Assembly: GCA_040752695.1 (NCBI GenBank)
Contig: JBFMGO010000077.1
Coordinates: 1 to 30,749, forward strand
DNA from: a bacterium
GTDB taxonomy: Bacteria > SZUA-182 > DTGQ01
Length of the DNA stretch: 30,749 nucleotides
Reading direction: 5' to 3'
Shown here: piece by piece, positions 4,385-30,749 of the stretch
Position numbering within the stretch: the stretch's first letter is position 1
Layout of the letters: every line of letters begins with the position of its first letter
The notes under the pieces: model-generated
Told to the model about the DNA's origin: nothing
Seen by the model: the letters and a program-made list of their open reading frames with translations, nothing else
The model's database searches: none
Translations under genes and position numbers: made by a program

Positions 4385-5380
4385 ATGAAAAGAATTATCC
4401 TTTTTGCTTTAGCAGGATTAGTGGTACTCAGTTTCATGACTGACTCTGGATTTGCCTGGGGACCTGCTACCCATATCTACATTACCAGAAGGCTGGATAG
4501 AAGGCTTGGAGCAATGAATTTTCAAAAGATATACGGTGGCATAGCTCCTGACATCTTTAGTTACATATACCGGGTACCATCCCGAAAGTACCTTGAGACG
4601 CAAATGCATACTGAGGTCATGGGATTATTGGCCGCAGCCGATAAAAAGGAGCTGAAAGCATTTGCCCTTGGATTTATGGGTCATAATGAGGTTTGGGGAG
4701 CGGATTACATTGCCCGCCATGAGCCGGACTATATAGGCAGGAAGTCTGATCAGCTCATAGCCAGGATACAACAAAATCCAACTCAGTTTTCTGAAGAACT
4801 GAGAAACACCATGGATGCTCTGTTCGAGATTGAGGGTGAGTACATGCACGGGCTCTGCTGCATTGCCGTAGAATACAGCGTGGACCTGTTGATAAAACGA
4901 AATGAAGATCCTGAAATCGGCGCACGGATAATCCTCGCAACTACGCTTCGGGATCCCAATATTCCCTCTTTACTGACCAGTGTTTATGGCCGCAATCAAG
5001 AGGAGATCCAAACCATTCTGAGTAGTGAAATGGAATTCAGAAAGGCGATGCTGGCCTACGGAAACAATCTTTTGCTGGATGAAAGATCAGCGGTTAAGGC
5101 GGTTGCCGGAATGATTGCCGAGATTGCCCCGGATGCGATCTGCATAGACCTCCCCAACCAGGATAAGCTGACCTCCATGGGGATTGAGCTCTTAAATGCA
5201 GCTCTCGTCATTTGCAGGTCCGATTATTCTCAATACGTATCAATAGCAATCGAGACGGTAAAGAGAAAGATAAATACCGGCTATCTCAATACCGATTTAG
5301 ATCCTGTGGAGGAGGAAGTCTCTCCTTGGGAGGATATAATCTCTCCTCCTCAAACAGGCATATATCCTTTCGTACGATAG
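4385..5380 (+). CDS. Secreted Zn-dependent phospholipase C / P1 nuclease superfamily-like protein
   Basis: Sec signal ending GFA, followed by mature N-terminal WGPATH (W-x4-H), GGIAPD and GFMGHN...AD motifs. Confidence 0.65.
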   Translation: MKRIILFALAGLVVLSFMTDSGFAWGPATHIYITRRLDRRLGAMNFQKIYGGIAPDIFSYIYRVPSRKYLETQMHTEVMGLLAAADKKELKAFALGFMGHNEVWGADYIARHEPDYIGRKSDQLIARIQQNPTQFSEELRNTMDALFEIEGEYMHGLCCIAVEYSVDLLIKRNEDPEIGARIILATTLRDPNIPSLLTSVYGRNQEEIQTILSSEMEFRKAMLAYGNNLLLDERSAVKAVAGMIAEIAPDAICIDLPNQDKLTSMGIELLNAALVICRSDYSQYVSIAIETVKRKINTGYLNTDLDPVEEEVSPWEDIISPPQTGIYPFVR

Positions 5381-7465: not shown

Positions 7466-9556
<2,091 letters not shown>

Positions 9557-9591: not shown

Positions 9592-11715
9592 TTAGTTTGC
9601 CGTAGTTCCAGCCGGCTTTACCGTCACTGATGGGTGGTCTCTTTTATCTATCTTCTCGGTAAGGTTCTTGAGCCGCTCCTGGAACTGTTTCGTGAGTGAC
9701 CTTCCCTCACCCTCACTATTGACAATATGCGGGGTAATCAAGATAATCAGCTCAGTTTTATTGACCGTGTCTTTGGTACGCGAGAATAGATAGCCCAGAA
9801 TGGGGATATCCCCGAAGAACGGAATACCGGTTCGTGACTTGCTTTTTTGCTCCTTGATCAGACCACCGATGACCAGAGTTTCTCCATTGTGGACAACCAC
9901 CGAGGTTTCGGCCTTTCGAGTACTGAAAATGTATTTAGTATCGCTGGAACCCGGAGCCAGTTGGCTTACCTCCTGCTTTAACTTCAAAGAGACCATCCCC
10001 TTTTCGTTGATGTTGGGAGTAAAGTTCAACTTTATTCCGGCAGTTTTGTAATCATAAGTGATAGTGGTCCGCTGCGAGTTAGCGTCGTAAGACTCTCTGG
10101 CAACAGGATAATCCTGTGTAATTTCAATCGTCGCTTCCTGATTATCGGAAGCAAGAACGTGAGGACTGGAAAGAACATTCAGTTTATTTTCATCCGCTTT
10201 GGTATTGATAAGAGAGAGAAACCGGTCCTGCCTGTTGATCATATAGCTGATCCCATCCGGAAGTGCATCAAGATCGCTCGTGTTTCCAGAAAGCCTGTCT
10301 CCAATCTTCTGACCTATTCGATAGCTGGTTCCTCCGGAGGCCGGGCCGCCGGACAGCGTCCAGTCGAGGCCGAAATCTTTTATATCATCAATGCTGATTT
10401 CAGCTACCAGAACTTCGATCAGTGCCTGTTTCGGCTGTATATCCAATTTTTTGATGGTTTCCAGAACCGCCAGCCAGTTCCGGGGAGAGGTAGTGACAAC
10501 CAGACCGTTGATGTCTTCGGCTGCCACGATGGTCACATCACCCTGAACATCCCCTCCATCGGAGCCGCCAAAAGGAGGAAATCCGAAAGGAGAATTCGGC
10601 ACCGGCTGATTCGGCACCTTGGGAGCTCCAGCGGGTTGCTGAATGGGAGATCTCCAATCATCTTTTTTGGCAGTGCCTTTTTTATAAATGGAAGTGAGGG
10701 TAGTCGCTAACTTTTTAGCGTCTCCATTTTCGACATAATACACAAAAACCTTTTCTTTGGGCTGATAGAGGGGCTTATCAAGCTCCTGGACAAACTTCAA
10801 AAGCCTCTTCATGTTATTGGCCGTGTCGTTAATAATCATAAGATTCAGATCGTCGTGCTGAATGGGCCGGGGCGCCGACTTGGAAAGGAAAGGCTGCAAT
10901 ATCGCGATCATATCTTTTACCGGAATGTATTCCAGAGAAATAATCTGGGTAATGTACGTCTCTTCCTGAGGAAGATTATCGCCCCCTTTTCCGGCCATTA
11001 CTTCGATAGGATACTGCGACGCCTCTTTTGCGTAAATTACCTTAAAATATCGACCCGATGGGATCATGGTCAGTCCGTTGACTTCCAAAACGGATTGCAA
11101 AATGGGAAAAAGTTCACTGATAGGAACAGGCTTGGAGGTTTGCATGGAGATTTGCCCCTTGACTCCAGTTCCCATAATGTAATTCAAGCCAATGTATTCG
11201 CTCACCGTATTGATGATGTCATCAATAGCAGCGTTCTCAAAATTCAACGTCACATACTCTTCCCCAGAGGTATCCGCTCCGGAAGAGAGGATTTTCTGCT
11301 TGATTTCAGAAGGCATCATGGAAGGCGGTGTCTTTTGGCTCTGCGCCTTATCTTCGGGATTGTAGGGTGTAAACAGAGCGCGATCCTTTTCTTCCCCTTT
11401 CCCTTCCTCGTGCACCTGTCCTTCTTCTGCCTCCTTGTCCGATAATTCTTTCTGACCCCCATGTCCCCTGCGAAGATTACTCTTTTCCTCTTTCCCTTCC
11501 TCAGACTGACTCTGGCTCCTTCGCCTTCCTTCTTGTTCATCCTCTACCTTGTCTATTTTCGTTTTATAGGAACCCCTCCTGTCGGAGGTAAGAGCATCCT
11601 GTGAGGCCACAGAGTTATTCCCCCGGTTAGCAGCGCAGGAGCAAAGGAGCATTATCAAAGCAGCAGTTAGAAAGAACCCCTTCAATGGTTGCTGATGGAA
11701 AACATTATATCTCAT
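9592..11715 (-). CDS. gspD: Type II secretion secretin (predicted lipoprotein)
   Basis: N0 VTLNFENAAI, two Secretin_N-type repeats, LDIQPKQALIEVLVAE, GETLVIGGLI, GIPFFGDIPILGYLF, ELIILITPHIV; lipobox LCS-C27. Confidence 0.95.
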   Translation of the reverse strand: MRYNVFHQQPLKGFFLTAALIMLLCSCAANRGNNSVASQDALTSDRRGSYKTKIDKVEDEQEGRRRSQSQSEEGKEEKSNLRRGHGGQKELSDKEAEEGQVHEEGKGEEKDRALFTPYNPEDKAQSQKTPPSMMPSEIKQKILSSGADTSGEEYVTLNFENAAIDDIINTVSEYIGLNYIMGTGVKGQISMQTSKPVPISELFPILQSVLEVNGLTMIPSGRYFKVIYAKEASQYPIEVMAGKGGDNLPQEETYITQIISLEYIPVKDMIAILQPFLSKSAPRPIQHDDLNLMIINDTANNMKRLLKFVQELDKPLYQPKEKVFVYYVENGDAKKLATTLTSIYKKGTAKKDDWRSPIQQPAGAPKVPNQPVPNSPFGFPPFGGSDGGDVQGDVTIVAAEDINGLVVTTSPRNWLAVLETIKKLDIQPKQALIEVLVAEISIDDIKDFGLDWTLSGGPASGGTSYRIGQKIGDRLSGNTSDLDALPDGISYMINRQDRFLSLINTKADENKLNVLSSPHVLASDNQEATIEITQDYPVARESYDANSQRTTITYDYKTAGIKLNFTPNINEKGMVSLKLKQEVSQLAPGSSDTKYIFSTRKAETSVVVHNGETLVIGGLIKEQKSKSRTGIPFFGDIPILGYLFSRTKDTVNKTELIILITPHIVNSEGEGRSLTKQFQERLKNLTEKIDKRDHPSVTVKPAGTTAN

Positions 11716-11785
11716 ATATTGACCTCCGGATACTTAAACAGTAGATTCTGTAATCTTCATCATAATCATGCACTATATTTCTTTA

Positions 11786-12811
11786 TCAAGATGGCCCGCC
11801 ACCCTGCCGAAAGGGATTCAAAAACGGGGCGCCCTGTCTTCCGCGAGGAGGAGCTTGAAAAGCGCCGGGAGGCGGTGCATAGATAGGTCGCTGTATTGGA
11901 AACCGATATGGTGCTCCTGGGGGAACTCCCGGTGATCCAGGAGGTGTTAAAGGCGGATAAAATCCCGGTTGCCCCGGCTGTCCTTGAGGAGGCTGAAACG
12001 CAGGGAACCCCGGAGGCGGCTGATAAGCCGGATAGCCTGGTGGAGGGTTCGGAACTGGATAGCCTGGGGGAGGAGTAAAGCGCGGGGGCGCCTGCGGTTC
12101 CGATTGCGGATTTCGCACTCTTGGACCTCCCTGCACGTTTTGCGGAGGTTCTGGTTCCTGACCTGGAATCTGGGCATTCGCTGGCGCAGAGGGCTCCCGA
12201 AGGAGGAGCTCGTATTCTTCTCCATTTTTACTCAAAACGACCCGATCTGGCAAAATATCGACTATTTGGGATTCGGAAACTTCATCTCCGATCCGATAGA
12301 CTCTGGTCTTATCATCCGTAACCCTGCCAGGGATCGGAGGAAGAGGAACATCGCGAACTTCTCCATTCCCCAGCCTCACCTTCCTGGACCGCTTTTGAGG
12401 CTCCTCCCGGATCGATCCTTTCATAATTGCGGATTTTTTATCTCTGATAATCACTATCCCATACAGCGTTGGCTTTTTCATACCAGGCTGATTGCGTTCC
12501 GCCGGATATTGAGGGATTTCCATCCGCGGCTGATCGGTTGCATCCGTCGGAGGAGGAGGAGGTAGCCACTCCGTTCTTTCAGGCCGGAACAAATCCTTGT
12601 CCGCAATGACATCATAGGTATATAAGGCAGGTTTGGAGTCATCCTCGTCCTGGGGAATTACTTCCTTCGCGGAAATATTCCTTTTGGAAACCGGCAGAGA
12701 TCCTTTCCATGTTCCATTTACAATCGGAAGCCAGATCTGGTAAGCATTAAAACTCAATAAAGATACGATGACAAAAAGTCCAAGATTTATCCAGAAAATA
12801 CGTTTAAACAA
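11786..12811 (-). CDS. gspC: GspC-like (XpsN/XcpP-position) inner-membrane protein with Pro-rich tail
   Basis: TTG start with SD AGGAG; single N-terminal TM; DLFRPER; HR-domain-like LYGIVI...YRIGDEV...IVDILPDRVVL; lies just before gspD. Confidence 0.65.
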   Translation of the reverse strand: MFKRIFWINLGLFVIVSLLSFNAYQIWLPIVNGTWKGSLPVSKRNISAKEVIPQDEDDSKPALYTYDVIADKDLFRPERTEWLPPPPPTDATDQPRMEIPQYPAERNQPGMKKPTLYGIVIIRDKKSAIMKGSIREEPQKRSRKVRLGNGEVRDVPLPPIPGRVTDDKTRVYRIGDEVSESQIVDILPDRVVLSKNGEEYELLLREPSAPANAQIPGQEPEPPQNVQGGPRVRNPQSEPQAPPRFTPPPGYPVPNPPPGYPAYQPPPGFPAFQPPQGQPGQPGFYPPLTPPGSPGVPPGAPYRFPIQRPIYAPPPGAFQAPPRGRQGAPFLNPFRQGGGPS

Positions 12812-12855
12812 GAGGTTCTCCTGTATCGATATCTCTTTGACGGTCGCTCATGGTT

Positions 12856-13437
12856 TTAGGTGGTACCTTTACCAGTGCTGCCCTTGCTGTTTAAGATAAA
12901 GCCGGAAACATCAATTCTCGCTTCAACGTCTTTAGGGTCGCGTATCCTATAGACTCTGATATTGAGGTCAGAAATACTCAAAAACTTGGGGTATGATTCA
13001 ATCTGGAAAAGCAACTCCTTGAGTTTGGTAATGGTGCACTGCGTAGTGATCTGAACAGGCACTTCCAGGAGGATACCCCTCTCTTTTGGGTTGATGATTC
13101 TCTGGCTGTTAATCGTAAGCTCGTGTTCGGATGCCATATCATTCAGTATCGTCTGCAATTCCGCGGCAGCCACGGCTGGCGTATCTCCGGACAAGAGCCG
13201 CTCATCAAACGCAGCCCGCTTGCTCTTTAGGTACTCCAGGCGGGCTTGAATACTCCCCTTTTTTTCAGCGATCGAGGAATAACTTTCGATCCTACGCTTT
13301 TTTTCTTCAATCTCTTCTTTCGTTTTCGTATTTCTGACTATAATCGGATAGACAATGCCGAAAGCGAAAAGTAAAAATCCGACAATGCTGCCAATGAGCA
13401 GGACCGGCTCTTTATTTTTTTCACTAATCCTTTTCAC
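12856..13437 (-). CDS. gspM: T2SS protein M (GspM/PilO-like)
   Basis: N-terminal TM, coiled coil, LLSGDTPAVAAAELQ, LKELLFQIES..KFLSISDLNI; GTGA overlap with gspL. Confidence 0.8.
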   Translation of the reverse strand: MKRISEKNKEPVLLIGSIVGFLLFAFGIVYPIIVRNTKTKEEIEEKKRRIESYSSIAEKKGSIQARLEYLKSKRAAFDERLLSGDTPAVAAAELQTILNDMASEHELTINSQRIINPKERGILLEVPVQITTQCTITKLKELLFQIESYPKFLSISDLNIRVYRIRDPKDVEARIDVSGFILNSKGSTGKGTT

Positions 13438-15314
13438 GGCTTCTCCTCCCCCTGCTCGGCATTCTCGCCGGTTTCTTTCTCCTTCTCAGGGGCTTTCTCT
13501 TTACTGCCCGCTTTCTCTTTTCCCGAAGGAACTAAAGAATCCGCAGCATCCTTTCCCCTTTCGACATTCGCTTTAATCTTGAAGCGCTCCTTGCCCGGAC
13601 CCATCTTAGTGATACTGGAGGCAAATTGAACATTTTCAAGCAGAGGGGAAATCTCCAGCATGGGGATTAAATTTGATGGAGATTCAGAATAGCCGCCAAT
13701 TTCCAATTTTTCATTTGAAACATCCATATTATCCAGCCAGGTATCTGCCGGAAGAGTGGTAGTCAGCTCCTTTAAAATTTCCATTTTACTGACCTCTGTA
13801 CCAACAACCTTATCAATATTGGAGAGTTCCTTATCGATTTTCTCGATATCCAGGGAGATGTTCTTTACCTCGGTAACATCGGGCTGCAGGGATTTAAGCC
13901 GCCGCGTCATCTCAGAAGATATCAGACTGCTCTGGTAGCTTAAGCCAATAACCCAGGCCAGGCTCATGACTACGATCAAGACCATAAAAACGACCGTAGC
14001 CACAAAGTGATTTCTCTTTCTTTTGATTTTCTTTCCAGAGGCCAGGAAATTCAACATGAGCGGCTGATCTTCCAGCCCACGCAGAGCCAGCCCCGTAGCC
14101 GCCGATAAACTGGAAGTAATCTTGCCCGGGATACTCCTAGTCGTGATATTTTTGAGCGGATTCAGTATCCTGGGCTGAACACCTGCCCGGGCATGAATGT
14201 ATTCGGGTAAAAGGCCGCTGTACGCATCAGTCCCGGTAAGGATAATGTTATCGAGCACCCTTTGATCCTGGAAATCGGAGAAGACGTGCATGGCTATTTC
14301 CAGTTCCCGGATAATGTCCTGCCCCAGAGCGGATACACTCTCATCAACGGGCTGGAAAAGGGTTGACGATTCTGGCTGATGCGCCCCGGGTACGTCACCG
14401 GATAGGTCATTTCCCTTAAAATTCTCCTCATCCTGATTCTGCCCCTCTTCCACTATGGGAAATGGAGCAGTGATGGAGGATGGAGTCATTGTAGAGGATT
14501 GAGGCGTAGTTGAGGGTTGAGGCACAGTAGAGGGTTGAGGCATGGTAGATGGTTGAGTCACGGTGGAGGACTGATACACCGATGCTTCGTCCCTGGTCCA
14601 TGCCTGGCCTGACTCTTCGCCCGTCTCACTGGTGAAGGACTCTTCCAGGTATGCATCTTCCAGGCGACTTTCAATCCGCCTGAAGCTCCTGGTTATCCTG
14701 ATTTCCTTTCCGGCCAGAAGGCCCAGATCCACCCTGTTTTCCCCGATATCTACCAGTGCTGTGGTTGCATCTTCGCCCAGGTCATTCTGAGCAATCAGCC
14801 AGTTCACTCCGGCAACTGAAGTGATGTCTACCACCACCGGCTTTGCCTGCTCCAGGTCCAGCATGGTGAGTATCTTTTGCAAATCATCTTTTTTGACGAC
14901 ACCCAAAAGAACCCTCAACGAATTCTCTTCCCTGCTCAGGATCTGATAATCAAAGGCAACGTTCTGAACCGCAAAAGGAATGTGTCTCTCAACCTCATAC
15001 TCCAGCATCTCCTGCAACTGCTTTTCTTCAACCTTTGGCAAGAGAATCTCCTTGAGGATCACCTGTTCCTTTGGGAGCCCGACAACGATCTGGTCCGGCT
15101 TGACCCCCCGCTCCCGGACGTAATTGCGCAGATCAAGAGCCAAAGGATCGGGTTCACCTTCCACTGCCGCCTTACCCTGGGGGGAGGGCGCCGGCGGGTA
15201 CTTTTTGATGAAATAGTCGATAAGGACAATTCCCTTCAAAGTCCGCCCCAGGTGAACGATCCGAAGAATACGATCCCGAAAATCAATACCTAGGCTTTGT
15301 TGTAGATATAGCAA
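13434..15314 (-). CDS. gspL: T2SS protein L (PilM-like actin fold + TM + PilN-like domain)
   Basis: SLGID, EVERHIPF, ALVDIG, IILTG, ATGLALRG, one TM, ILKELTTTLPADTWL..LEIGGYS; TTG start. Confidence 0.85.
   Translation of the reverse strand: MLYLQQSLGIDFRDRILRIVHLGRTLKGIVLIDYFIKKYPPAPSPQGKAAVEGEPDPLALDLRNYVRERGVKPDQIVVGLPKEQVILKEILLPKVEEKQLQEMLEYEVERHIPFAVQNVAFDYQILSREENSLRVLLGVVKKDDLQKILTMLDLEQAKPVVVDITSVAGVNWLIAQNDLGEDATTALVDIGENRVDLGLLAGKEIRITRSFRRIESRLEDAYLEESFTSETGEESGQAWTRDEASVYQSSTVTQPSTMPQPSTVPQPSTTPQSSTMTPSSITAPFPIVEEGQNQDEENFKGNDLSGDVPGAHQPESSTLFQPVDESVSALGQDIIRELEIAMHVFSDFQDQRVLDNIILTGTDAYSGLLPEYIHARAGVQPRILNPLKNITTRSIPGKITSSLSAATGLALRGLEDQPLMLNFLASGKKIKRKRNHFVATVVFMVLIVVMSLAWVIGLSYQSSLISSEMTRRLKSLQPDVTEVKNISLDIEKIDKELSNIDKVVGTEVSKMEILKELTTTLPADTWLDNMDVSNEKLEIGGYSESPSNLIPMLEISPLLENVQFASSITKMGPGKERFKIKANVERGKDAADSLVPSGKEKAGSKEKAPEKEKETGENAEQGEEKP
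14469..14576 (-). repeat. Six 18-bp in-frame tandem repeats within gspL
   Basis: YQSSTV TQPSTM PQPSTV PQPSTT PQSSTM TPSSIT. Confidence 0.9.
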
Positions 15315-15438
15315 CGTAAAGCTCCATCTATAAGCTGTTTTCTGTTTCTTCGCCGGTTCTTCATTCTTCCGCTTGTTCTCATTCCTTCACAGCCGGGTGC
15401 CTGCTTCTTCGTTAATCCCTGTTTCTTTTCGCTTTTTC

Positions 15439-16536
15439 TCATTGTTTCTCTTCATCAGGCTGATCCAAAACATCTGTTTTAATTTCTTCATCGTACTTGG
15501 GAATATAATTATCATTCCAGGACAGGGGCTTCCAGTAATCCCGGTTCTGGACCAAAAAGGAAGCCATGACATGCCGCTGGACCGGAGAATTTTTTATAAT
15601 TCCAGTTGAGATAATTTGATAATAGCCGGCAGCAAACGCCTTATCATAAATACCGCCATTTAACTCCTTCTGACGTTCAACTTCTTCAGGGGATAGACTT
15701 CTGGGCCATCCGATGTCGTATGCATTCTTAATGACCTCTGGCCTGGCAGTATTGTAAAAAATATCAGCCTGAGGATTTCTGCCCTCATTATCAAGGTCAT
15801 TATTCACCTTATAATTCCTTTTAAAAGCGGACACTATCTCCTTTTTTCTGGCGGCCTCTTCTTCATTGTCGTCATCTTCAATGCGAAGTCCCCGAATCAG
15901 GCTCAGTTCCCCCTCGCTATCAAAGGGAGCATCCTTGCATTCATAACCCCTATCGTGAGATTTATACCAGTCATCCTCCGCTCCGATCCCGGGTGATCCG
16001 CCGGTTTGAGTTGATCCACCGATTACGTGATCATCATCTACCCAATCCATAATGGAACGGCTGATATTACTACTTTCCTCTGAAAAAGGGTCAATCTTGC
16101 AACTGCTCTCTAAAAACTTTTTAATCATTTCTACGCTTTTTGAATAATTCGCAGGATCAGCTAGCTTATTTAACGGTAACTTATTACCGGCATCTTTAAA
16201 TTTATAGTGGTATTTTCCACCGCCCAATTCATTGCTCCGGCAGGAAAATGGCATTCTGACCTCACCATCATCTCCCAGGCCAAAGACCTGCTCTTCGGAC
16301 TCAGGATAACTGTAGTGACCCTTTTCCTGACCGCAGATAGCCAGTTCATAGCGGCCGATCTCTATGCCGGCCCTGGCCAGATAATAGGCCTGGATTTCAT
16401 CACGAAAGGTTTTAGTCACTTCCACTTCCGTTCTCATGGAATGAGCAAACTCAAGAGCGATAAATCCAAGAAGAATCATAACCCATAACACCATCATCAA
16501 AGCGACACCTCTTTCACCTTTGTGCAACGGCGGCAT
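15439..16536 (-). CDS. gspK: T2SS minor pseudopilin K
   Basis: ERG|VALMMVLW (no E5, as usual for GspK), QAYYLARAGI, IMDWVDDD, GAED, ELSLIRG. Confidence 0.92.
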   Translation of the reverse strand: MPPLHKGERGVALMMVLWVMILLGFIALEFAHSMRTEVEVTKTFRDEIQAYYLARAGIEIGRYELAICGQEKGHYSYPESEEQVFGLGDDGEVRMPFSCRSNELGGGKYHYKFKDAGNKLPLNKLADPANYSKSVEMIKKFLESSCKIDPFSEESSNISRSIMDWVDDDHVIGGSTQTGGSPGIGAEDDWYKSHDRGYECKDAPFDSEGELSLIRGLRIEDDDNEEEAARKKEIVSAFKRNYKVNNDLDNEGRNPQADIFYNTARPEVIKNAYDIGWPRSLSPEEVERQKELNGGIYDKAFAAGYYQIISTGIIKNSPVQRHVMASFLVQNRDYWKPLSWNDNYIPKYDEEIKTDVLDQPDEEKQ

Positions 16537-17371
16537 TCTCCCTCCGCTCTACCAGAGGTAGTGGAATTTCAAAGCTCATGCTCATTTCCTGCCCTTCTCC
16601 ATCGTCCTTTCCTTCCGGCTTTCTGCGAATGGTCACTCGCAATTTTTCCGGCAATTCTTTCAGGTACTTCTCTCCGCTCTGAACATCCTCCAGAAGATTC
16701 CAGTCGTCATACCACTTCGGTTCGGCATCATTTCCATCTAACGTTATCGCTTCACCGTGGGGCTTTTTTACTCCATAATACTGAAATGTAATATCAACAA
16801 CATCCGGATAAGCTGAATACACATACGGCTTCGGATCCAGAGCGTCATCTTCGGCCTTATCTTCTTCTTTTTTGAATAGATACTGACCCAGCCAGAGGCT
16901 TTCTTCCATGACAAGACCCGGCTTATCCTCTTCCTGCCCCAGGTAGTATGATACCCGACGTAAGCTTCCTTCTTTCAACTGAGGGTTGATGCCGGAAGCT
17001 TTCGTAATAAATGTCACCTTTTTGGGTCCTCCCAAAAACACGACTGCCCAATTCAGGCGGTTCTGATCAAATTTTTTCTCTCCTGTGACATCAATCGTAT
17101 AGGTAGCCGGCTTCTTTATGCCGATGCAGGATTTGATATCCTGGATCAAGATATCAAAAGTACAACGTATTCTTTGAAGCTCTTCCATCCTTTTCTCTCC
17201 CGTCTCCCACGAGCGGATTCCCAGCCGAAACCCTCCCATGGTCACGGCCATGATCATACTCAGAATGGTCAGAGCGATCAGTACCTCAATAAGGGTAAAA
17301 CCCTTTTTCCAGTTCGCCTGCACAATGCTGTTCCACATCGAAGTGATGGTATATACCTTAAAAGAAATCAT
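16514..17371 (-). CDS. gspJ: T2SS minor pseudopilin J
   Basis: KKG|FTLIEVLIAL prepilin motif, RRVSYYL, LPEKLRVTI, operon position; true start could be the downstream Met12. Confidence 0.85.
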   Translation of the reverse strand: MISFKVYTITSMWNSIVQANWKKGFTLIEVLIALTILSMIMAVTMGGFRLGIRSWETGEKRMEELQRIRCTFDILIQDIKSCIGIKKPATYTIDVTGEKKFDQNRLNWAVVFLGGPKKVTFITKASGINPQLKEGSLRRVSYYLGQEEDKPGLVMEESLWLGQYLFKKEEDKAEDDALDPKPYVYSAYPDVVDITFQYYGVKKPHGEAITLDGNDAEPKWYDDWNLLEDVQSGEKYLKELPEKLRVTIRRKPEGKDDGEGQEMSMSFEIPLPLVERRENAAVAQR

Positions 17372-17380
17372 ACTCTTTTT

Positions 17381-17857
17381 TTATAAATCATTCTCTTTTT
17401 TATAAAACATCTTCACACTGACCAGTTCCACGCTTTTATCATTCTCTCCGCTTTTCCAGGAGACTCGAATCGTGATCTTGCGAAGCTGATATTTTTTCTC
17501 TAGCGAACCATTGTGCTTGGACCATTCTTCCTCAAGATCGGGAATTATATACTCCTCATCTCTTACCTGCCAGCGGTAACCTTCGAGAAAACTATTTTCT
17601 TCGCCGGTGCCGAACTCGCCCTGTTTCTCCATCGACTCCTCATAATCTTCCAGGTACACGTAGCCTAAGGCCTCATCCATCTTCATTCTCGCCCCCATCA
17701 CTGCCTTGCTGTAATCTGCCGATATCTTGGTCGAGCGCAGTGATCCGGAAAACAGGCGAAATAACGTGACCAAACCTACCGCCAGAATGGCTACCGCAAT
17801 CATTACTTCCAGTAATGTAAATCCTTGCGTCCTCCGGCATGCGGACTCTTTATTCAT
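17381..17857 (-). CDS. gspI: T2SS minor pseudopilin I
   Basis: QG|FTLLEVMIAVAI, GYRWQV, ITIRVSW, operon position. Confidence 0.85.
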   Translation of the reverse strand: MNKESACRRTQGFTLLEVMIAVAILAVGLVTLFRLFSGSLRSTKISADYSKAVMGARMKMDEALGYVYLEDYEESMEKQGEFGTGEENSFLEGYRWQVRDEEYIIPDLEEEWSKHNGSLEKKYQLRKITIRVSWKSGENDKSVELVSVKMFYKKENDL

Positions 17858-18458
17858 TTTCAGTTTTTCTCTTGACCGAAACCCTTCCCGTAATAGGATC
17901 TACCTCAATCTGAAAAGCCAGATTACGGTCTTTTAGAGCCAAAGTGACTTTTCCCCCGCTCGATTCACCCTTGGGATAGAAAAGAATCGCTCCTCTTTTA
18001 TCGGGCTCGTTCTGTAAGTCTTCCTCCTCACCCTCTTTATGAAAGGAGACGGTTACTTCCTCGGTCCTCAATTCTTTTTGTAAATCGACCTGGATTTGTA
18101 GCTCCTTAATATCTTCTTCACCCAAGGCATCTTTATTCGCTTCGGCAGCCTGCTCCTCCTCCGAAATATCCCCTCCATCGGACTCGGAATCCCCGCCTTT
18201 TTTCCTTGTCACGTTTACATACGTGTAGGAATGACCGTCAAACGTCACAGCGTATTCCTTTTTCCTGGAGATAGCTGTCTGTCTGGTATACCGCAAAACA
18301 GCGGCAAGCTTGCGGCTGGCGGATCGTAACCTCATCTTTTGCAGGGACTTGCCGATCTTCGGTACAGCCAGGGCCATCATGGAACCAATGATGACGATAA
18401 CGATCATCAGTTCGATGAGGGTGAAGCCTTTTTCCCTCAACAAATCATGATGCCTCAT
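17850..18458 (-). CDS. gspH: T2SS minor pseudopilin H
   Basis: KG|FTLIELMIV, LRYTRQTAI, ILFYPKGESSGG, EVDPITGRV; ATGA overlap with gspG. Confidence 0.88.
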   Translation of the reverse strand: MRHHDLLREKGFTLIELMIVIVIIGSMMALAVPKIGKSLQKMRLRSASRKLAAVLRYTRQTAISRKKEYAVTFDGHSYTYVNVTRKKGGDSESDGGDISEEEQAAEANKDALGEEDIKELQIQVDLQKELRTEEVTVSFHKEGEEEDLQNEPDKRGAILFYPKGESSGGKVTLALKDRNLAFQIEVDPITGRVSVKRKTENE

Positions 18459-18994
18459 TCTTCCCCTGGCCCATAAACCGGGCCTCTATGACCATCAGAA
18501 GCACTTGCCCCGGTACCCATGTTGGAAATGTCGTCATCGGTGTTCTCCTGGCCATCCGGCCCGGCTGAGGCGATTGTATATGAATCGGAGCCGTCGCATG
18601 TATAATAATAGTCATGTCCCCACGGATCCTTGGGCAGTTTTTTCACATAAGGACCATCCCAGGTACCTCCGCTTCCTTCCGGATTCGTTACGAGATCTTC
18701 CAGATTTGAAGGATAGCGCATGTTATCCAACCGGTAGGTGTCCAGGGCAGTTTCAAACAGGGCTATCTGACCCTGCGCGGCCTGGATCCTGGCTTTATCA
18801 ACTTTGCCGAACATTTTCGGCCCGACCAGAGCAGCCAAAAGGCCGATGATAATCATGACGATGAGCAATTCGATCAGGGTAAAACCTCTTCGATCGACAA
18901 TAATGTCGACAAGAAGATGCCGTCCGATTCCAGCCTGCGTGTTGGAGTGCCCTTCGTGTATTAATTTACCTAAAATTCCTCCATCATTTTTCAT
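18455..18994 (-). CDS. gspG: T2SS major pseudopilin G
   Basis: RRG|FTLIELLIV, ALDTYRLD, WDGPY, PKDPWG and Ca-binding-type SAGPDGQENTDDDI; 37-aa leader if the annotated start is right. Confidence 0.95.
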   Translation of the reverse strand: MKNDGGILGKLIHEGHSNTQAGIGRHLLVDIIVDRRGFTLIELLIVMIIIGLLAALVGPKMFGKVDKARIQAAQGQIALFETALDTYRLDNMRYPSNLEDLVTNPEGSGGTWDGPYVKKLPKDPWGHDYYYTCDGSDSYTIASAGPDGQENTDDDISNMGTGASASDGHRGPVYGPGEE

Positions 18995-19187
18995 GTTCTA
19001 CCCCCATAAATAATTTCTTTTGTTTCTCCTTGCAGGATATCCTTCCCATCCTCTATTGCCCGCAAGGGCACCCCTCTTTATTCTCAAAGAGGCATCCCTT
19101 TCCTTGAAGAACATCCCTGCACCCTTTTTAAAGGGGAGCGGAGAAATTTTTATTATGAACGGAAAATATGCATTTTTCAGGCCAAGC

Positions 19188-20405
19188 CTACATCGGAATA
19201 TCATTAATTCCAAAAATTGCCATCAGCATGGAGACAACGATAAAACCTACTACCAGACCCATGACCAATATCATTGCAGGCTCCAGCATGGATACCATAC
19301 GCTTGATTGAAGTGCGTGTTTCCCGGTCATAGGCATCGGCAATCTTAAACAGCATCGTTTCCAACTGCCCGGTCTCCTCTCCGACATCAATCATATGAAT
19401 GGCCATGGGAGGGAAGAGATGACATTGCATCAAGGGCTCGGAAATTTTCTCCCCTTCTTTGATCCTGCCCTGAATCTCTCTGATGGCCTTGGCCAGAACG
19501 GAATTTCCCATGATATCCTTGACAATGGCCAATGCCTGAAGAATGGGCACGCCGCTTTGAACCAGCGTTCCCAGGGTTCTGCTGAACCTGGAAACCTCGA
19601 TCTTCTGAGTTAAACTTCCCCAGACGGGAAAACGAAGTTTCAAAGAATCCCAGAACCACTTGCCTCCTTCTGTCTGCAAATATTGTCGAAGAGCCAAAAA
19701 CAGCACCAGGACCACTCCTATGATCAACCACCAGTAGTGGACCAGCCCATTGCTGATTCCCAGTAAAAACCGCGTGGACAGAGGCAAGACCTGACCCATG
19801 TCCGCAAAGATCTGGGTAAATTTCGGGACCACAAAGGTCAGCAGTATGGCCACCGCACCTCCGCCAACCAGGGTCAGGAGCACCGGATAAACCAGGGCCG
19901 AAGTGATACTTTCTTTAAATTCCTGAGAGCTCTCCAAAAACTCGGCCAATCTGCTCAAGACACCTTCCAGAACGCCGCCCGACTCCCCTGCCTTGACCAT
20001 GCTTACGTAAAGCCTTGAAAAAACCCTCGGATGGCGGGCCAGAGCATCGGTAAAATGACTTCCGCCGTGGACACTTTTCTGTACATCGGCAATGACCTGC
20101 TTCAGCTTTTTATTGTCGGTCAGTTCGGTCAGTATGGTTAAGCTTCTGTCCAGGGGGACCCCCGAAGAGGTGAGTGTCGCTAATTGGCCGGTAAAGATCA
20201 GAACATCCTTTTTCTTAATCCTCTGGCTAAAAGAGAAGGAGAGCTTTCGCTCGGTCGGAGATGATTTTCCTTTTTCCTCAACCTTGATCGGAAAAAAATT
20301 CGATTCCTGCAGCCGGGTTATTACAGCTTTCTTATCTTTTGCTTCAATGCTTCCGGTAACGAGCTTGCCAAGCCGATCCGTTGCTTTGTAGGTAAAAACC
20401 GCCAT
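19188..20405 (-). CDS. gspF: T2SS inner-membrane platform protein F
   Basis: MAVFTYKA, FTGQLATL..SGVPL, MVKAGESGG, SALVYP, VGEETGQL, LEPAMI. Confidence 0.95.
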   Translation of the reverse strand: MAVFTYKATDRLGKLVTGSIEAKDKKAVITRLQESNFFPIKVEEKGKSSPTERKLSFSFSQRIKKKDVLIFTGQLATLTSSGVPLDRSLTILTELTDNKKLKQVIADVQKSVHGGSHFTDALARHPRVFSRLYVSMVKAGESGGVLEGVLSRLAEFLESSQEFKESITSALVYPVLLTLVGGGAVAILLTFVVPKFTQIFADMGQVLPLSTRFLLGISNGLVHYWWLIIGVVLVLFLALRQYLQTEGGKWFWDSLKLRFPVWGSLTQKIEVSRFSRTLGTLVQSGVPILQALAIVKDIMGNSVLAKAIREIQGRIKEGEKISEPLMQCHLFPPMAIHMIDVGEETGQLETMLFKIADAYDRETRTSIKRMVSMLEPAMILVMGLVVGFIVVSMLMAIFGINDIPM

Positions 20406-20470
20406 GAAAAATTCTCATCCTTATCAGAATCTAAACGCATTCGAAGGTAGCTGATTTGAAGGAGGAAGGT

Positions 20471-22201
20471 CTATATCCCGATAGCATCCAGAACCTCAGT
20501 TTCATCCTCCTGGGTGACTCTCAGGACCTCCTCGATCGTAGTCATTCCTTTTTTCACCTTTTCCCAGCCATCTTCACGCAAAGTTTTCAGTCCGCCCTGA
20601 ATAGCCTTTTGTCGGATAATACTGGCGCCCGTTTTCTCGATAATCAACCTTCGGATTCCTTCATTGATGATCAATAGTTCATATAAACCGGTTCTCCCCT
20701 TATAGCCTGTATTTTTACATTCCTCGCACCCCTTGCCCCGATAGACGATAGCATTCTCCTTGTGCGGCAGATTCATGCGGGCCAGGGCCTTTTTATCCGG
20801 AATTACCGGCTGCCTGCATCGCCTGCAAATGGTCCGGACCAGCCTTTGAGCCAAAACTCCCTCCAGACAGGAAGCCACGAGAAACCCCTCGACTCCCATG
20901 TCCAGAAGCCGTGTCACTGCACCGCAGGAATCGTTGGTGTGCAGGGTGGAAAATACCAGGTGCCCGGTCAAAGCGGATTGAATCGCAATCTCCGCTGTTT
21001 CCAGATCCCGGATTTCTCCTATCATCATGACATCAGGGTCCTGCCGGACGATAGACCGCAATCCGCTGGCAAAGGTCAAACCAATCTTGGCATTCACCTG
21101 GATCTGATTTACCCCGCTTAACTGATATTCCACCGGGTCTTCGACCGTAATAATTTTTTTATCCGGAGAATTGATTTTGTCCAGACCAGCATAGAGAGTA
21201 GTGGTTTTACCACTTCCCGTAGGCCCGGTAACCAGAACAATCCCGTGCGGTTTTCGGATCAGGCCCTCGAAAAGAGGCAGCTTGTCTTCAGGAAACCCGA
21301 GTTCCTCCAGGGTCAATAAAATGCTGCTGCGATCCAGGATACGCATGACCACGCTCTCCCCGTACAGGGTGGGAACTGTGGACACACGAAGATCCACCTT
21401 CTTGCCCGCGACGCGAAGCCTGACCCTTCCGTCCTGCGGCAGACGCCTTTCGGCAATATTGAGATTAGCCATAATCTTTACCCTCGAAGTGATCGCAGCC
21501 TGAAGGCGCTTCGGAGGAGATTCGATATCATGCAAAATCCCGTCAACTCTCAAACGAACCAGGACCTTATCTTCGAAGGGCTCGATATGAATGTCACTCG
21601 CCCCATCATCGATCCCCCTCGTAATGATCAGGTTAACCAGCTTAATGATCGGGGCCTCGGATGCCATATCGCGCAATTGATTGATATCTTCATCCTCACT
21701 GGTGCTCACCAGTTGCATTTCATCTTCATTCATATCCCCGATAATCCGCTCCATGGTTGTTGCCGCACCGCCATATTGCCTCTCGATGGCAGCCATAATG
21801 TCAGTTTCCTTGGAAATATACAGCTTTACTTTACAATTGGCAAAAAGGGCAATCTCATCAATGGTGGAAAAATCCATGGGAGAGGCCGTGGCCATGGACA
21901 GGGTATTCGCTTTCATCTCCAGCGGGAAAAATTTATACTGTTTCATAAACTGTGGCGAGAAATCAACGCCCAGAAACGGTGTCTCCGGATATGCCGATGC
22001 AGGCAAATAAGGCAGATGCAAATAAGTACTGAGAACCTTGTATACATTCTCTTCCGAAACCAGGCCAAGATCCACCAAAACCTTTTCCAAAGGCTGCCCG
22101 GTACTTTTATGCTCCTCAAGAGCTCTGTTGAGATCCTCCTGATCAATCAACTTCTGATTCAACAAAAGCTCACATATCCTGTTTTTATCAAAGCCAATCA
22201 T
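20471..22201 (-). CDS. gspE: T2SS ATPase E with N-terminal MshEN-like domain
   Basis: ASDIHIEP, Walker A GPTGSGKTTT, TVEDPVE, RQDPDVMMIGEIRD, LTGHLVFSTLHTND, tetra-Cys motif. Confidence 0.96.
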   Translation of the reverse strand: MIGFDKNRICELLLNQKLIDQEDLNRALEEHKSTGQPLEKVLVDLGLVSEENVYKVLSTYLHLPYLPASAYPETPFLGVDFSPQFMKQYKFFPLEMKANTLSMATASPMDFSTIDEIALFANCKVKLYISKETDIMAAIERQYGGAATTMERIIGDMNEDEMQLVSTSEDEDINQLRDMASEAPIIKLVNLIITRGIDDGASDIHIEPFEDKVLVRLRVDGILHDIESPPKRLQAAITSRVKIMANLNIAERRLPQDGRVRLRVAGKKVDLRVSTVPTLYGESVVMRILDRSSILLTLEELGFPEDKLPLFEGLIRKPHGIVLVTGPTGSGKTTTLYAGLDKINSPDKKIITVEDPVEYQLSGVNQIQVNAKIGLTFASGLRSIVRQDPDVMMIGEIRDLETAEIAIQSALTGHLVFSTLHTNDSCGAVTRLLDMGVEGFLVASCLEGVLAQRLVRTICRRCRQPVIPDKKALARMNLPHKENAIVYRGKGCEECKNTGYKGRTGLYELLIINEGIRRLIIEKTGASIIRQKAIQGGLKTLREDGWEKVKKGMTTIEEVLRVTQEDETEVLDAIGI

Positions 22202-22262
22202 TGGGGCCTCAAAATCAAATTAAATGTAAACAAAAAGCTTTGTTTTTCAAAATAATATTTAC

Positions 22263-22291
22263 AGTATAACTGATCTAAAGGGTTAAGTCAA
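22263..22291 (-). promoter_or_regulatory. sigma70-type promoter of the T2SS operon
   Basis: TTGACT-N17-TATACT, about 60 nt upstream of gspE. Confidence 0.75.
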
Positions 22292-22388
22292 CAGTAAACA
22301 CTTTCTCCTCAGCCACCTCACAAAATCTGCCACTGCGGTCCTTCGATCGGAAGGCAATTCCATATATACTACAACTATCATCATGCAA

Positions 22389-22401
22389 AATCAATAAATT
22401 A
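22389..22401 (+). promoter_or_regulatory. IHF consensus match
   Basis: AATCAATAAATTA fits WATCAANNNNTTR, about 100 bp upstream of the T2SS promoter; AT-rich context makes a chance match possible. Confidence 0.35.
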
Positions 22402-22456
22402 ATACATTCAGGTCTCTATTTTGTGACCCTTTTTCGGAGAATCATGAAAAACATGC

Positions 22457-22523
22457 CTGAATGATGAAACAACTGGATAATAAAACAACCTGGACGATAA
22501 AATAAGCTGGACGATATAATAAC
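22457..22523. repeat. Four degenerate 16-17-bp tandem repeats
   Basis: CTGAATGATGAAACAA / CTGGATAATAAAACAAC / CTGGACGATAAAATAAG / CTGGACGATATAATAAC. Confidence 0.85.
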
Positions 22524-22577
22524 CTGAGCTGTAGAACGGCCGGCCTGGGCGACAAATAATCCGCGTGTAAATAATGT

Positions 22578-22617
22578 GTCCCTTTTCTCCCGGGCAGGAG
22601 ACCGGGAGAAAAGGGAC
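22578..22617 (-). terminator. Strong hairpin downstream of the repeat-protein gene
   Basis: Perfect 16-bp stem GTCCCTTTTCTCCCGG / CCGGGAGAAAAGGGAC, 8-nt loop, 32 nt after the stop; weak U-tail (ACATTATTT). Confidence 0.7.
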
Positions 22618-22649
22618 GGCAAAACCATTCCATTATCAAAACATGACAA

Positions 22650-23501
22650 TTAAATTACCGCTGGTGCCAGTGAAGCTATAAAGGAACCTGTCCCGATAAT
22701 TGAGGTACTGTTGATCTGAGTATAAGTACCGGTCATATCAGTGGGAGAGGTAAGTGAGCAAACGATATCGATCTGGATCGTTTGACTGCCAATTCCAAGA
22801 CCGGCGCCAGAGAGAATAATCTGATTATTCAGTATTTCACCAGTAACGTCTACGATAACTCCAAGCACAGGGTTACCTACCAACTGGACATAACCGGAAA
22901 CTGCTGTCGGTAGTACAGGATCCAGGACAAGGTTCAAGGTTATAGGCCCTGTGGCATACACTACGCTCTTGGTCGTTGTCGTACTCCAGGTACCTGTCCA
23001 TGTTCCAGCCTGTTCAGCAAGACCATATCTCAGTCCGCCGTAGAGACTGCTGCCATACAGGCCGCCGTACAGTCCACCGTAGAGGCTGCTGCCATACAAG
23101 CCGCCGTACAGTCCGCCGTAGAGACTGCTGCCATACAGGCCGCCGTACAGTCCACCGTAGAGGCTGCTGCCATACAGCCCGCCGTACAGTCCGCCGTAGA
23201 GACTGCTGCCATACAGGCCGCCGTACAGTCCACCGTAGAGGCTGCTGCCATACAGGCCGCCGTACAGTCCACCGTAGAGGCTGCTGCCATACAAACCGCC
23301 GTACAGACCGCCATAAAGGCTGCTGCCATACAGGCCGCCGTACAGTCCGCCGTAGAGGCTGCTGCCATACAGCCCGCCATAGAGACTGCTGCCATAACCA
23401 TAACTATAATATGCTTGAACATTTCCCTGAGGAATTACGGCTAATACGAATAATAAAATAGAAGAAATGATTAAAAGTTTGCCCTTAGAAGAATAATTCA
23501 T
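22650..23501 (-). CDS. Exported Gly/Tyr/Leu/Ser tandem-repeat protein with C-terminal beta-rich domain
   Basis: SD AGGAGAGGAG 9 nt before ATG 23501 (283 aa); Sec signal ending VQA; 121-aa repeat array whose nucleotide variation is all synonymous; ~120-aa beta-strand-patterned C-terminus. Confidence 0.9.
23031..23393 (-). repeat. 39-bp coding tandem repeat ([13 protein letters not shown])
   Basis: CTGCTGCCATA recurs on + at 23047, 23086, 23125, 23164, 23203, 23242, 23281, 23320, 23359, 23386 (eight 39-nt steps, one 27-nt step). Confidence 0.98.
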
Positions 23502-23940
23502 GATGATAATCTCCTCTCCTATCCACAAAAAAATCTTGAAAAATTATTCCCTTCTAAAACTCCCCTAAAAACACCCCTAAAATCTCCCCTTTTTCCCATA
23601 CGCTTTTTTGCAAGTACCTCCCTTGCTTTATGAAGGAAAAATGAGAATAACTTCTCCTTTTTTTGGCATGCACCTCCCTTCCTGAGTAGAGCGCAGTGAT
23701 GATAGATTAGCTGGCCCTACTGGCTGTTCTCATCCTCTACGAAGGAGAAATGAATCATACATAAAAAGCAAGCTTACCCATAAAACAAGTTCACTTACGG
23801 AGCAGGACATTGCACGTGCCCCGGAATGATAAAAACGGGCATCCAGATTACGCATTTGTTGCCCAGTATACTCGTGCTCTGATAAATTTTTACCACACGG
23901 CATTTGGCTAATGCCCACTTCGAGCTACCACCGCACTATC

Positions 23941-23956
23941 AGCAATATTGATACCA
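23941..23956 (-). promoter_or_regulatory. sigma54 (-24/-12) promoter facing the repeat-protein gene
   Basis: TGGTATCAATATTGCT = TGG-N8-TTGC, exact GG-N10-GC spacing. Confidence 0.7.
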
Positions 23957-24375: not shown

Positions 24376-24741
24376 TTACGGGCGGCGAATCCGGATTCCT
24401 TCCTCTATCAGGGTAATGATCATGCCCTCTTGAAATTTTATCTTTTCAGTTAATTTTCCCAGCAATCTCATGATATTGGCAGGGTTCAAATTACCCGGAC
24501 GGATAAAAATGATCCCATAGTGTGGTTTCAACCCGTATACGGCCAAGGTGCCAAAGTCTTTGTCACAAGTCAAGATAACTCTCTTCTCTGCCTGAGCTCT
24601 CTCCAGAATTTCATGATCAGTCTTCCCTTGCCAGCCAAGCTCTTTTATATCCAGCACATCTGCGCCACGCTCTCGAAGGTAAGCCACCACTTTAGGAGAA
24701 ATATTCTCATCAGCCAAGAATCTTATTAAGCCCAGTTCCAT
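24376..24741 (-). CDS. DUF5615 family PIN-like protein (VapC45-like toxin)
   Basis: RFLADENIS, G..DHEIL, RVILTCDKDFG, GIIFIR; TGATG overlap with the upstream DUF433 gene. Confidence 0.9.
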   Translation of the reverse strand: MELGLIRFLADENISPKVVAYLRERGADVLDIKELGWQGKTDHEILERAQAEKRVILTCDKDFGTLAVYGLKPHYGIIFIRPGNLNPANIMRLLGKLTEKIKFQEGMIITLIEEGIRIRRP

Positions 24742-24971
24742 CAGACTTTCCCAAGAGGAATATAAATATCGTTTTTAAGCGCGTGGGCCGCATATTCTAA
24801 AACTGCATGTATGTCTTCCTCGGTGATATGGGGATAATCTTCCAAAATTTCTGCCTGGGTCATTCCGGAAGCTAACAACTCAAGGATAAATTCTACGCTG
24901 AGCCTTGTGCCTTTGATAATTGGTTTTCCCCCCAGTATTTCAGGGTTTATTACGATTCGCTCTCTATACAT
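24741..24971 (-). CDS. DUF433 domain protein (VapB45-like antitoxin)
   Basis: RIVINPEILGGKPIIKGTRLSVEFILELLASG..EILEDYPHI..EDIHAVLEYA. Confidence 0.93.
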   Translation of the reverse strand: MYRERIVINPEILGGKPIIKGTRLSVEFILELLASGMTQAEILEDYPHITEEDIHAVLEYAAHALKNDIYIPLGKV

Positions 24972-30180: not shown

Positions 30181-30749
30181 TTAGCCGATAAGTAATTCTT
30201 CTATCTCTTTTACGGTAGTGGCTATTCTTATTGCCTCTTTAATGGCATCAAGTCTGGTTATATCCTTTTCTTTTTCTATCCTCGGTAACAGCTTTAATCC
30301 CTCTAAGCCGAATTTCAATTCCATCCCCAATTTGATAGCTTCGATAAGCCCTTCCAGCCTTCCTTTCTCAATGCCTTTCTCTATGCCCTTCTCTATGCCT
30401 TCCAGCCTCCCTTTCTCAATGCCTTTCTCTATGCCCTTCTCTATGCCTTCCAGCCTCCCTTTCTCAATGCCTTTTTCTATGCCTTCCAGCCTTCCCCTCT
30501 CTATGCCCTTCTCAATCCCTTTTTCCATGCCTTCCTGAAAGATTTCCTGTCCTGCCCTGGTCTTGGCCAGATCAAAGTCTAACATTTGTATTACCTCCTC
30601 TCGTGATAGATCCCGAAATCGATTCAGAAGAAACAAAGCCAGAACGTTGAGAACGTCCTGGTGATGATGCTTCGGATAGACCCTATAGGCTGTATCCACC
30701 CATATACGGCTTCGATCCATGAGCTCATCTTTGGCAACTCCCTTTTGAA
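30181..30749 (-). CDS. Rpn/DUF2887-like protein, C-terminal part (5' end outside the window)
   Basis: Frame stays open to the window edge; RF.DLSREEVIQML.....TR..QEIFQEG followed by G(I/R)(E/L)(K/E) tetrad repeats and LELKFG-type tail (MELKFG). Confidence 0.75.
   Translation of the reverse strand, partial: QKGVAKDELMDRSRIWVDTAYRVYPKHHHQDVLNVLALFLLNRFRDLSREEVIQMLDFDLAKTRAGQEIFQEGMEKGIEKGIERGRLEGIEKGIEKGRLEGIEKGIEKGIEKGRLEGIEKGIEKGIEKGRLEGLIEAIKLGMELKFGLEGLKLLPRIEKEKDITRLDAIKEAIRIATTVKEIEELLIG
30352..30531 (-). repeat. Fifteen 12-bp in-frame repeats (GIEK/GRLE)
   Basis: GMEK GIEK GIER GRLE GIEK GIEK GRLE GIEK GIEK GIEK GRLE GIEK GIEK GIEK GRLE. Confidence 0.95.

Follow-up and report, generated by a model that had tools for sequence, protein, structure and literature searches.

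A gene on a 30,749-nt contig (JBFMGO010000077.1, assembly GCA_040752695.1, from a bacterium of the lineage SZUA-182; DTGQ01), which we refer to in its full length as the window, belongs to an undescribed, order-restricted family of exported, nearly uncharged proteins with Gly-Leu-Tyr repeats. This repeat/barrel gene, named here after the two parts of its product, lies upstream of a type II secretion system (T2SS) cluster, and an earlier note made from the letters alone had read the two as one locus exporting a self-assembling material through its own T2SS. Our comparison of related genomes separates them. The gene is a self-contained, mobile cassette, with a sigma-54 promoter, a strong ribosome-binding site, and a 3' hairpin, and in this genome alone it has come to lie next to a T2SS operon of the ordinary Xps type. 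As for function, we lean slightly toward a self-assembling protein coat or matrix that would be controlled by sigma-54 and trimmed by a protease. Coordinates of the features are given in Table 1.

Anatomy of the repeat/barrel protein

The predicted 283-aa product begins with the Sec-type signal peptide that the earlier note had described; we judged it by eye, and the paralogues show the same layout. The stretch composed only of Gly, Ser, Leu, and Tyr that follows is as pure as had been claimed and somewhat longer (127 aa, residues 31 to 157, instead of 121 aa). It contains 47 Gly, 31 Tyr, 28 Leu, and 21 Ser residues, with 17 GGLY and 27 LYG motifs and a period of 13 aa. Among eight identical 13-aa repeat units, the 74 pairwise base differences are all silent, falling at the third codon position in 62 cases and at the first in 12, which indicates that the GGLY frame is real and under selection at the protein level. 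The same silence ruled out two other candidates, a Met/Ala/Cys frame and an opposite-strand frame over the repeat. Of the residues in the mature chain, 3% are charged, and none is His.

The C-terminal domain, predicted earlier to be beta-rich, was modelled with confidence as an 8-stranded antiparallel barrel (Table 1). Its top fold matches were designed soluble barrels, with Z scores of 14.3 (root mean square deviation, or rmsd, of 2.3 over 109 aligned residues) and 13.8. Further matches included Cap15, OmpA-type porins, avidins, and Slam-cargo barrels (Z scores of 8 to 13, with 4 to 17% identity), and small transmembrane barrels (OmpA/OmpW/PagL) matched the model at Z scores of 11 to 12.7. 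In the alignment of family members, conserved columns of Gly and large hydrophobic residues alternate with columns of T, S, N, Q, D, or E, and the chains mostly end in P-V-I. This pattern, taken from the alignment and not from strand facing in coordinates, suggests that the barrel core is filled, the hydrophobic face presumably pointing inward.

At the sequence level, the repeat/barrel protein matched no Pfam or NCBIfam family, the 26 barrels of this genome gave only scattered subthreshold matches against family libraries, and the barrel had no match among solved chains at E values of up to 10. Small unnamed clusters in the ESM Atlas resemble the barrel by structure, with no usable feature match for it or for the PPYN family described below. 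A barrel homodimer prediction scored 0.00; we drew no verdict from it and did not use it as evidence.

A large set of nearly uncharged, putatively exported proteins in one order

The barrel family was found in all 13 genomes of the order, with 3 to 41 copies per genome, and in none of 7 other genomes of the phylum or 21 genomes from other phyla. The 26 paralogues in this genome are scattered as singles or arrays and share 20 to 66% identity. A search of 1.84 billion representatives yielded 94 matches at an E value of 1e-10; the weaker matches were short signal-peptide or lipoprotein barrels lacking repeats. No bacterial family of this kind was found described in the open-access literature, a scope within which subscription papers or preprint supplements that may mention one do not fall.

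These barrels are part of a wider set. Using a crude script as the signal-peptide filter, we collected about 110 open reading frames (ORFs) with signal peptides and less than 8% charged residues in the genome, including a few false positives (membrane proteins); the median share of charged residues in ORFs of at least 300 aa was 23%. The set comprised 18 proteins with both a barrel and LYG repeats, 8 with a barrel only, 12 with LYG repeats only, 28 PPYN proteins, and 44 others, and the C-terminal residue was I, L, or V in 74 of the 110. Tyr-rich uncharged stretches were present in 81 ORFs in all, including exported proteins of 1,000 to 2,000 aa.

The PPYN family is a secreted Pro/Trp-rich domain encoded by 28 to 34 genes in this genome (e.g., G000 locus L115:99-632, + strand; alignment A4). 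Its distribution mirrors that of the barrel, with 11 to 68 copies in each of the 13 genomes of the order and none in 23 other genomes. The PPYN model was confident (predicted local distance difference test score, or pLDDT, of 87.6), and its best fold match among 48,161 chains had a Z score of 2.4, with no Foldseek match at an E value of 0.001; such an absence does not prove a new fold. Searched against family libraries, 29 PPYN members matched no Pfam family and gave only scattered subthreshold hits. In relatives, single chains join PPYN to one to five barrels, which ties both families to one compartment. One locus (L092, G007:C12:70000-89999) is an array of about nine genes with PPYN or Pro-rich leaders and one to five tandem barrels. 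A third module of about 40 aa, LQN[ML]Y...PF[LM]QIAP, was observed in about six LYG proteins with or without a barrel (L002, L005, L018, L019, and L020); one of these, L018 (C1:142128), has a CxxCH motif at its end.

The host is a deep lineage, the nearest named groups (Rokubacteria and Schekmanbacteria) sharing about 70% RpoB identity with it. It has an outer membrane and, by motif only, acetyl-CoA synthase and NiFe hydrogenases. Genome-wide, 49 ORFs carry at least three CxxCH motifs, and a single chain can have as many as 28; judging from Geobacter and Shewanella, multihaem CxxCH proteins are plausible as ordinary T2SS cargo.

Control elements of the cassette

The control elements described in the earlier note were all found. 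Upstream lies a -24/-12 site that agrees with the sigma-54 consensus; the motif CTGGTAT-N5-TTGCT is retained upstream of all four close homologues with upstream DNA, and the genome encodes RpoN. The Shine-Dalgarno motif is doubled, and the 16-bp hairpin follows the gene; many barrel paralogues are likewise trailed by long 3' hairpins. A sigma-54 site precedes 11 of the 28 LYG-barrel genes that have their own upstream gap, versus 15 of 283 other ORFs at the same loci, and the corresponding figures within this genome are 10 of 42 versus 6.5%.

The 799 nt upstream of the gene have no second copy elsewhere in the genome, and nothing in the window matched Rfam. We rejected a tiny ORF within the long 5' leader because homologues do not conserve its start codon. 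A AGAAGGGAGGT-like motif in the leader (window 23610-23690, - strand) is also present in close homologues, where no start codon is conserved with it, and is possibly a site of control at the RNA level.

A subtilase beside the main barrel array

The largest array, with five barrel genes on contig C94, is preceded by a co-oriented subtilase and followed by an M4/M36-like protease, and a sigma-54 activator is encoded close by. The subtilase belongs to a subfamily that was detected at an E value of 1e-60 in all 12 relatives from the order (4 to 10 copies) and in none of 7 genomes outside it. In 8 of 9 relatives, spanning three families, a subtilase orthologue (at least 55% identity) is found no more than 1.5 kb from a LYG or barrel gene; this count omits G003, G011, and G012 (63 to 76% complete), where the best match is a paralogue with 48 to 50% identity. 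In the ninth relative, the contig stops 0.7 kb past the subtilase. The background in this genome is 45 of 2,692 genes. The orthologues have an intact catalytic triad and C-terminal tails with 5 to 12% charged residues. In this subfamily, the catalytic Ser is followed by a Cys, and a His close to the S1 pocket is conserved. The main array is flanked (L126:16858-19386 and L127:5863-6699) by genes for two ICMT/PEMT-like methyltransferases and one unannotated membrane protein; G001 and G002 retain them, and their products are possible modifiers.

A coat or matrix as the favored role

Our reading starts from computed results: the anatomy of the protein, the barrel fold, the size and restriction of the family, the shared sigma-54 sites, the module fusions, the subtilase by the main array, and the absence of linkage to the T2SS described below. 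The earlier proposal of an exported structural material gains support from family size, composition, and co-regulation, and it is kept here in conditional form. The product would be one subunit of an order-wide set of nearly uncharged exported proteins that builds a hydrophobic coat, sheath, or biofilm matrix. It would be exported to the periplasm by Sec, where the folded barrel would keep the chain tractable and may carry an export or assembly signal. A general route, for which either T2SS of the genome is a candidate, would take it across the outer membrane. Outside, the Tyr/Leu-Gly repeats may cohere through stacking of their aromatic rings and through hydrophobic contacts, much like the repeats of squid suckerins and beak proteins. 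The subtilase would trim or remodel the subunits, with the single Arg that precedes the barrel as a conceivable cleavage site, and enzymes and giant surface proteins may be bound into the same material by Tyr-rich tails of their own.

Several points weigh against such a coat or matrix. Expression, export, assembly, and location are all inferred from sequence. The about 110 candidates depend on the crude filter noted above, and three genomes of the order fall outside the subtilase count. A subtilase was visible at 1 of 30 metagenome barrel loci, most barrel genes are far from one, and the subtilase link may reflect one inherited ancestral event, the relatives being kin. The Arg motif was present in 22 of 110 cases, compared with a shuffle mean of 5.8 and a maximum of 15, and was devised after the sequences had been inspected. 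There are 136 sigma-54 sites genome-wide, many of them ahead of other secreted proteins; being so widespread, they are no mark of a dedicated regulon. The likeness to suckerins lies in composition, may have arisen by convergence, and need not imply a common function; we claim no homology.

Among other roles, the one that survives best, although improbable, is periplasmic: the proteins would enclose an inclusion, much like the sulfur globule proteins of purple sulfur bacteria. In its favor, SgpA-C envelop periplasmic globules (PMC11267869), and the neighborhoods of the family showed no outer-membrane exporter dedicated to it. Against it, the neighborhoods that were read show no clustering with sulfur or storage genes, and dsrA was above the cutoff in none of 20 genomes of the phylum. 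The Tyr-rich stretches on proteins of 1,000 to 2,000 aa suit a surface location. A search with the Pfam SGP family matched nothing, controls included, and is hence uninformative.

Slightly less probable still is that the barrel binds ligands in the manner of avidins or lipocalins, the repeat being a surface tether and the paralogues diversified binders rather than bulk material. The fold matches include avidins (Z scores of 10.5 to 12.0), NHBA, and Cap15, and the divergence of the paralogues would fit. The alternating Gly and large hydrophobic columns point instead to a filled core, provided that they face inward; solved binders have no sequence match to the barrel, and the 12 LYG-only and 28 PPYN proteins of this genome lack a barrel altogether.

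Beyond the coat or matrix itself, we tentatively raise a broader possibility, which we regard as less likely than otherwise: a modular toolkit unlike described envelope systems. In it, about 100 sigma-54-controlled secreted subunits, built from suckerin-like GGLY stickers, the barrel, and a new-fold PPYN domain and matured by a co-expanded subtilase, might form a coacervate-derived sheath or matrix into which Tyr-rich tails recruit enzymes, cytochromes, and giant adhesins, and which is possibly a scaffold for the many multihaem cytochromes. If the coat or matrix reading is right, the set would be a bacterial counterpart of squid GGLY materials with about 100 genes per genome and the first physical trait for a phylum known only from assembled genomes. 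It would also contribute two domain families as yet unannotated, one of them lacking a fold match, together with natural, sequence-diverse building blocks for protein materials that a laboratory strain could produce.

Adjacency to an ordinary T2SS

The window carries an 11-gene cluster in the order gspE-F-G-H-I-J-K-L-M-C-D. The core components GspD, GspE, and GspF all pass curated cutoffs, as do GspG and GspM; the remaining pseudopilins and GspC and GspL score below the cutoff, yet they are in place with matching domains. The cluster had been called atypical. Its gene order is identical to that of the Xanthomonas xps cluster (xpsEFGHIJKLMCD), its GspM matches the XpsM model NF040576, and its GspC, like XpsC (PMC11981180), has no PDZ domain. 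The same source describes a promoter of its own for xpsE. Differences from Xps are the long Pro-rich tail of GspC, where XpsC has a single helix, the anaerobic phylum of the host, and ligA, an NAD-dependent DNA ligase gene (window 7466-9550, - strand) that starts 41 bp past gspD and follows the cluster in 5 of 9 relatives in which the region is visible. The window T2SS is an ordinary system of the known Xps type, and its oddities, the GspC tail and a repeat insert in GspL, are minor.

The genome encodes seven secretins, including that of a second T2SS with a PDZ-bearing GspC; this second system (gspCDEF) was present in all nine relatives read. In this genome its gspE (L106:6645-8335, G000:C5) occupies two overlapping ORFs, and the nine relatives read have it in one piece, which points to either a frameshift or an assembly error.

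A T2SS dedicated to the repeat/barrel protein, the two forming one system, was the model of the earlier note, and we now consider it very unlikely. The measured spacing agrees with what had been reported: the gene is co-oriented with gspE and ends 448 bp from it. Orthologous gspE is present in 11 of 12 same-order relatives, and the unusual Pro-rich tail of GspC sits where substrate-docking regions lie (PMC11981180). The claim that the gene heads the operon was not confirmed: its hairpin and a separate gspE promoter lie between the two, and that promoter is retained in 6 of 6 aligned genomes of the taxonomic family regardless of the preceding gene.

A barrel gene lies upstream of the orthologous gspE in 0 of 11 same-order relatives, a count that omits G012 (63% complete and without orthologous gspE) and includes G001 and G003, where the visible 1.0 to 1.1 kb or so upstream of gspE is enough for a barrel gene at the spacing of the window. 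In the relatives, the place is taken by two-component pairs, a small Cys-rich protein, or a transposase (labels assigned by eye). Conversely, no gsp cluster was found within up to 10 kb of 35 barrel loci of other genomes (one has a 63-aa pilin-like match; L066, with a 25-aa match and no match to the barrel hidden Markov model, is omitted), and no gsp match at 30 metagenome barrel loci, 15 of which have at least 2 kb downstream. The counts lack independence, the locus sets sharing proteins with the relatives' genomes and the relatives being kin; all point in the same direction. Within this genome, a gsp cluster borders only 1 of the 26 paralogues, and the closest five homologues examined (75 to 86% identical) occupy four different neighborhoods, none with gsp genes.

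The second T2SS likewise had no barrel or PPYN neighbors in the nine relatives read. Co-occurrence of the barrel family and T2SS is near-complete within the order and uninformative there; outside the order, G013 (85% complete) has a gspE-M cluster and lacks the barrel family. As the homologues are unlinked to this T2SS, a dedicated T2SS is not supported. Adjacency to a secretion operon misleads in this case, the conserved partner being a protease encoded elsewhere in the genome.

Two further readings are the least probable of all. In the first, the LYG repeats would be substrate sites of a splicease-type radical-SAM enzyme, whose recognition motif is XYG, and the protein a modified-peptide precursor; the 27 LYG motifs fit, but a Sec signal occupies the leader position, a radical-SAM match was seen in none of 15 neighbors scanned, inspection of the paralogues' surroundings by eye revealed none, and eight barrel proteins have no LYG repeats. 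In the second, just as doubtful, the barrel would be a type 11 secretion system (T11SS, or Slam) signal. In T11SS cargo, an 8-stranded barrel forms the C-terminal end, and the N-terminal regions before it are variable or disordered (PMC12282271); the barrels of NHBA, fHbp, TbpB, and HpuA match at Z scores of 8.4 to 11.0. Against this, PF04575, for the cognate DUF560/SlipAM outer-membrane protein, was above the cutoff in only 2 of the 14 genomes; in this genome it reached 17.5 bits against a cutoff of 22, a threshold that a very divergent Slam could escape. The best local PF04575 match better fits a PEP-CTERM-associated barrel family, none of the 26 members has a TbpB-type Pfam match at E values of up to 1, and a pedestal region is not evident.

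Features and other genes of the window

Table 1. Positions of the repeat/barrel gene, its control elements, the T2SS cluster, and the array-associated subtilase (window coordinates unless a locus is given)
Feature	Position	Strand	Basis
GGLY-repeat/barrel gene, 283 aa	ATG 23501 to 22650	-	ORF reading
Sec-type signal peptide, aa 1-30	23412..23501	-	By eye: basic start, hydrophobic core, V-Q-A before cut
G/S/L/Y-only stretch, 127 aa (residues 31-157)	23031..23411	-	Sequence composition
C-terminal 8-stranded antiparallel beta-barrel, single Arg just before it	22653..23030	-	AlphaFold2 pLDDT 88.5, predicted template modelling score (pTM) 0.81
Sigma-54-type -24/-12 site, 440 nt before start codon	23941..23957	-	Motif match
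Doubled Shine-Dalgarno motif (AGGAG twice)	23511..23520	-	Sequence reading
16-bp 3' hairpin, terminator or stabilizer	22578..22617	-	z -5.0
Sigma-70-type promoter of gspE, TTGACT-17-TATACT, 10/12	22263..22291	-	Motif match
gspE ATPase, MshE-type cyclic di-GMP motif	20471..22201	-	TIGR02533 691 bits; NF053729 56.7 bits (cutoff 38)
gspF	19188..20405	-	TIGR02120 above cutoff
Pseudopilins gspG, H, I, J, K	15439..18994	-	Profile matches
gspL, PilM-like and PilN domains, low-complexity repeat insert	13434..15314	-	Profile/domain matches
gspM, XpsM type	12856..13437	-	NF040576 102 bits (cutoff 60)
gspC, HR region, no PDZ match, Pro-rich tail	11786..12811	-	Domain matches
gspD secretin	9592..11715	-	TIGR02517 400.7 bits (cutoff 351)
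Subtilase, uncharged tail	L126:14700-16556 (G000:C94)	-	Order-restricted subfamily

Just upstream of the cassette, a DUF5615/PIN gene and a 76-aa partner, DUF433-like by eye (window 24376-24971, - strand), form a probable toxin-antitoxin pair. Elsewhere in the window, we observed an unannotated ORF with a lipocalin-like match (259-1548, + strand), a DUF3782/PD-(D/E)XK protein (1747-2610, - strand), an unannotated ORF whose 32% identical homologue adjoins a close barrel homologue in G001 (4385-5380, + strand; L088), and, at the contig end, an ORF with a 12-nt tandem repeat and a Yae1_N match (30181-30720, - strand).

Comparison with known systems

The barrel has the same overall fold as avidin/streptavidin and the T11SS-cargo barrels (Z scores of 8.4 to 12.0; rmsd of 2.3 to 3.9). 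It differs from them in sequence, with 7 to 17% identity and no sequence-level match (avidin profiles had no match in the 26 members at E values of up to 1), and this genome has no Slam above the cutoff.

Two bacterial sets offer further parallels. Streptomyces chaplins are multicopy, secreted, hydrophobic proteins with short and long modular forms that co-assemble into a surface layer (PMC5618241). Here, the host is diderm, there are about 110 candidates versus 8 chaplins, the modules are different, and control is by sigma-54 rather than BldN; the chaplin domain DUF320 had no Pfam match in the window protein, the 26 barrels, or the 29 PPYN members. The sulfur globule proteins SgpA-C, which are Gly/Tyr-rich and carry signal peptides, resemble the family in being exported, hydrophobic, and represented by several interchangeable paralogues. 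The family described here differs in the absence of Dsr from the phylum, in its folded barrel and PPYN modules, and in having ten times as many genes.

In composition, there is a likeness to squid proteins. A literature search for GGLY repeats together with suckerin self-assembly returned only a cephalopod review within the open-access scope. Suckerin M2 modules contain GGY and GGLY, and suckerins and the histidine-rich beak proteins are exported, carry GGY/GGLY or GHGLY repeats, and self-assemble through Tyr (PMC11931252), as we propose for the family here; the association of repeats in beak proteins (PMC6884462) can be likened to that envisaged for the window protein. The window protein differs from the suckerins in that it is bacterial, has neither His nor Ala/His-rich M1 modules, and joins its repeats to a folded barrel.

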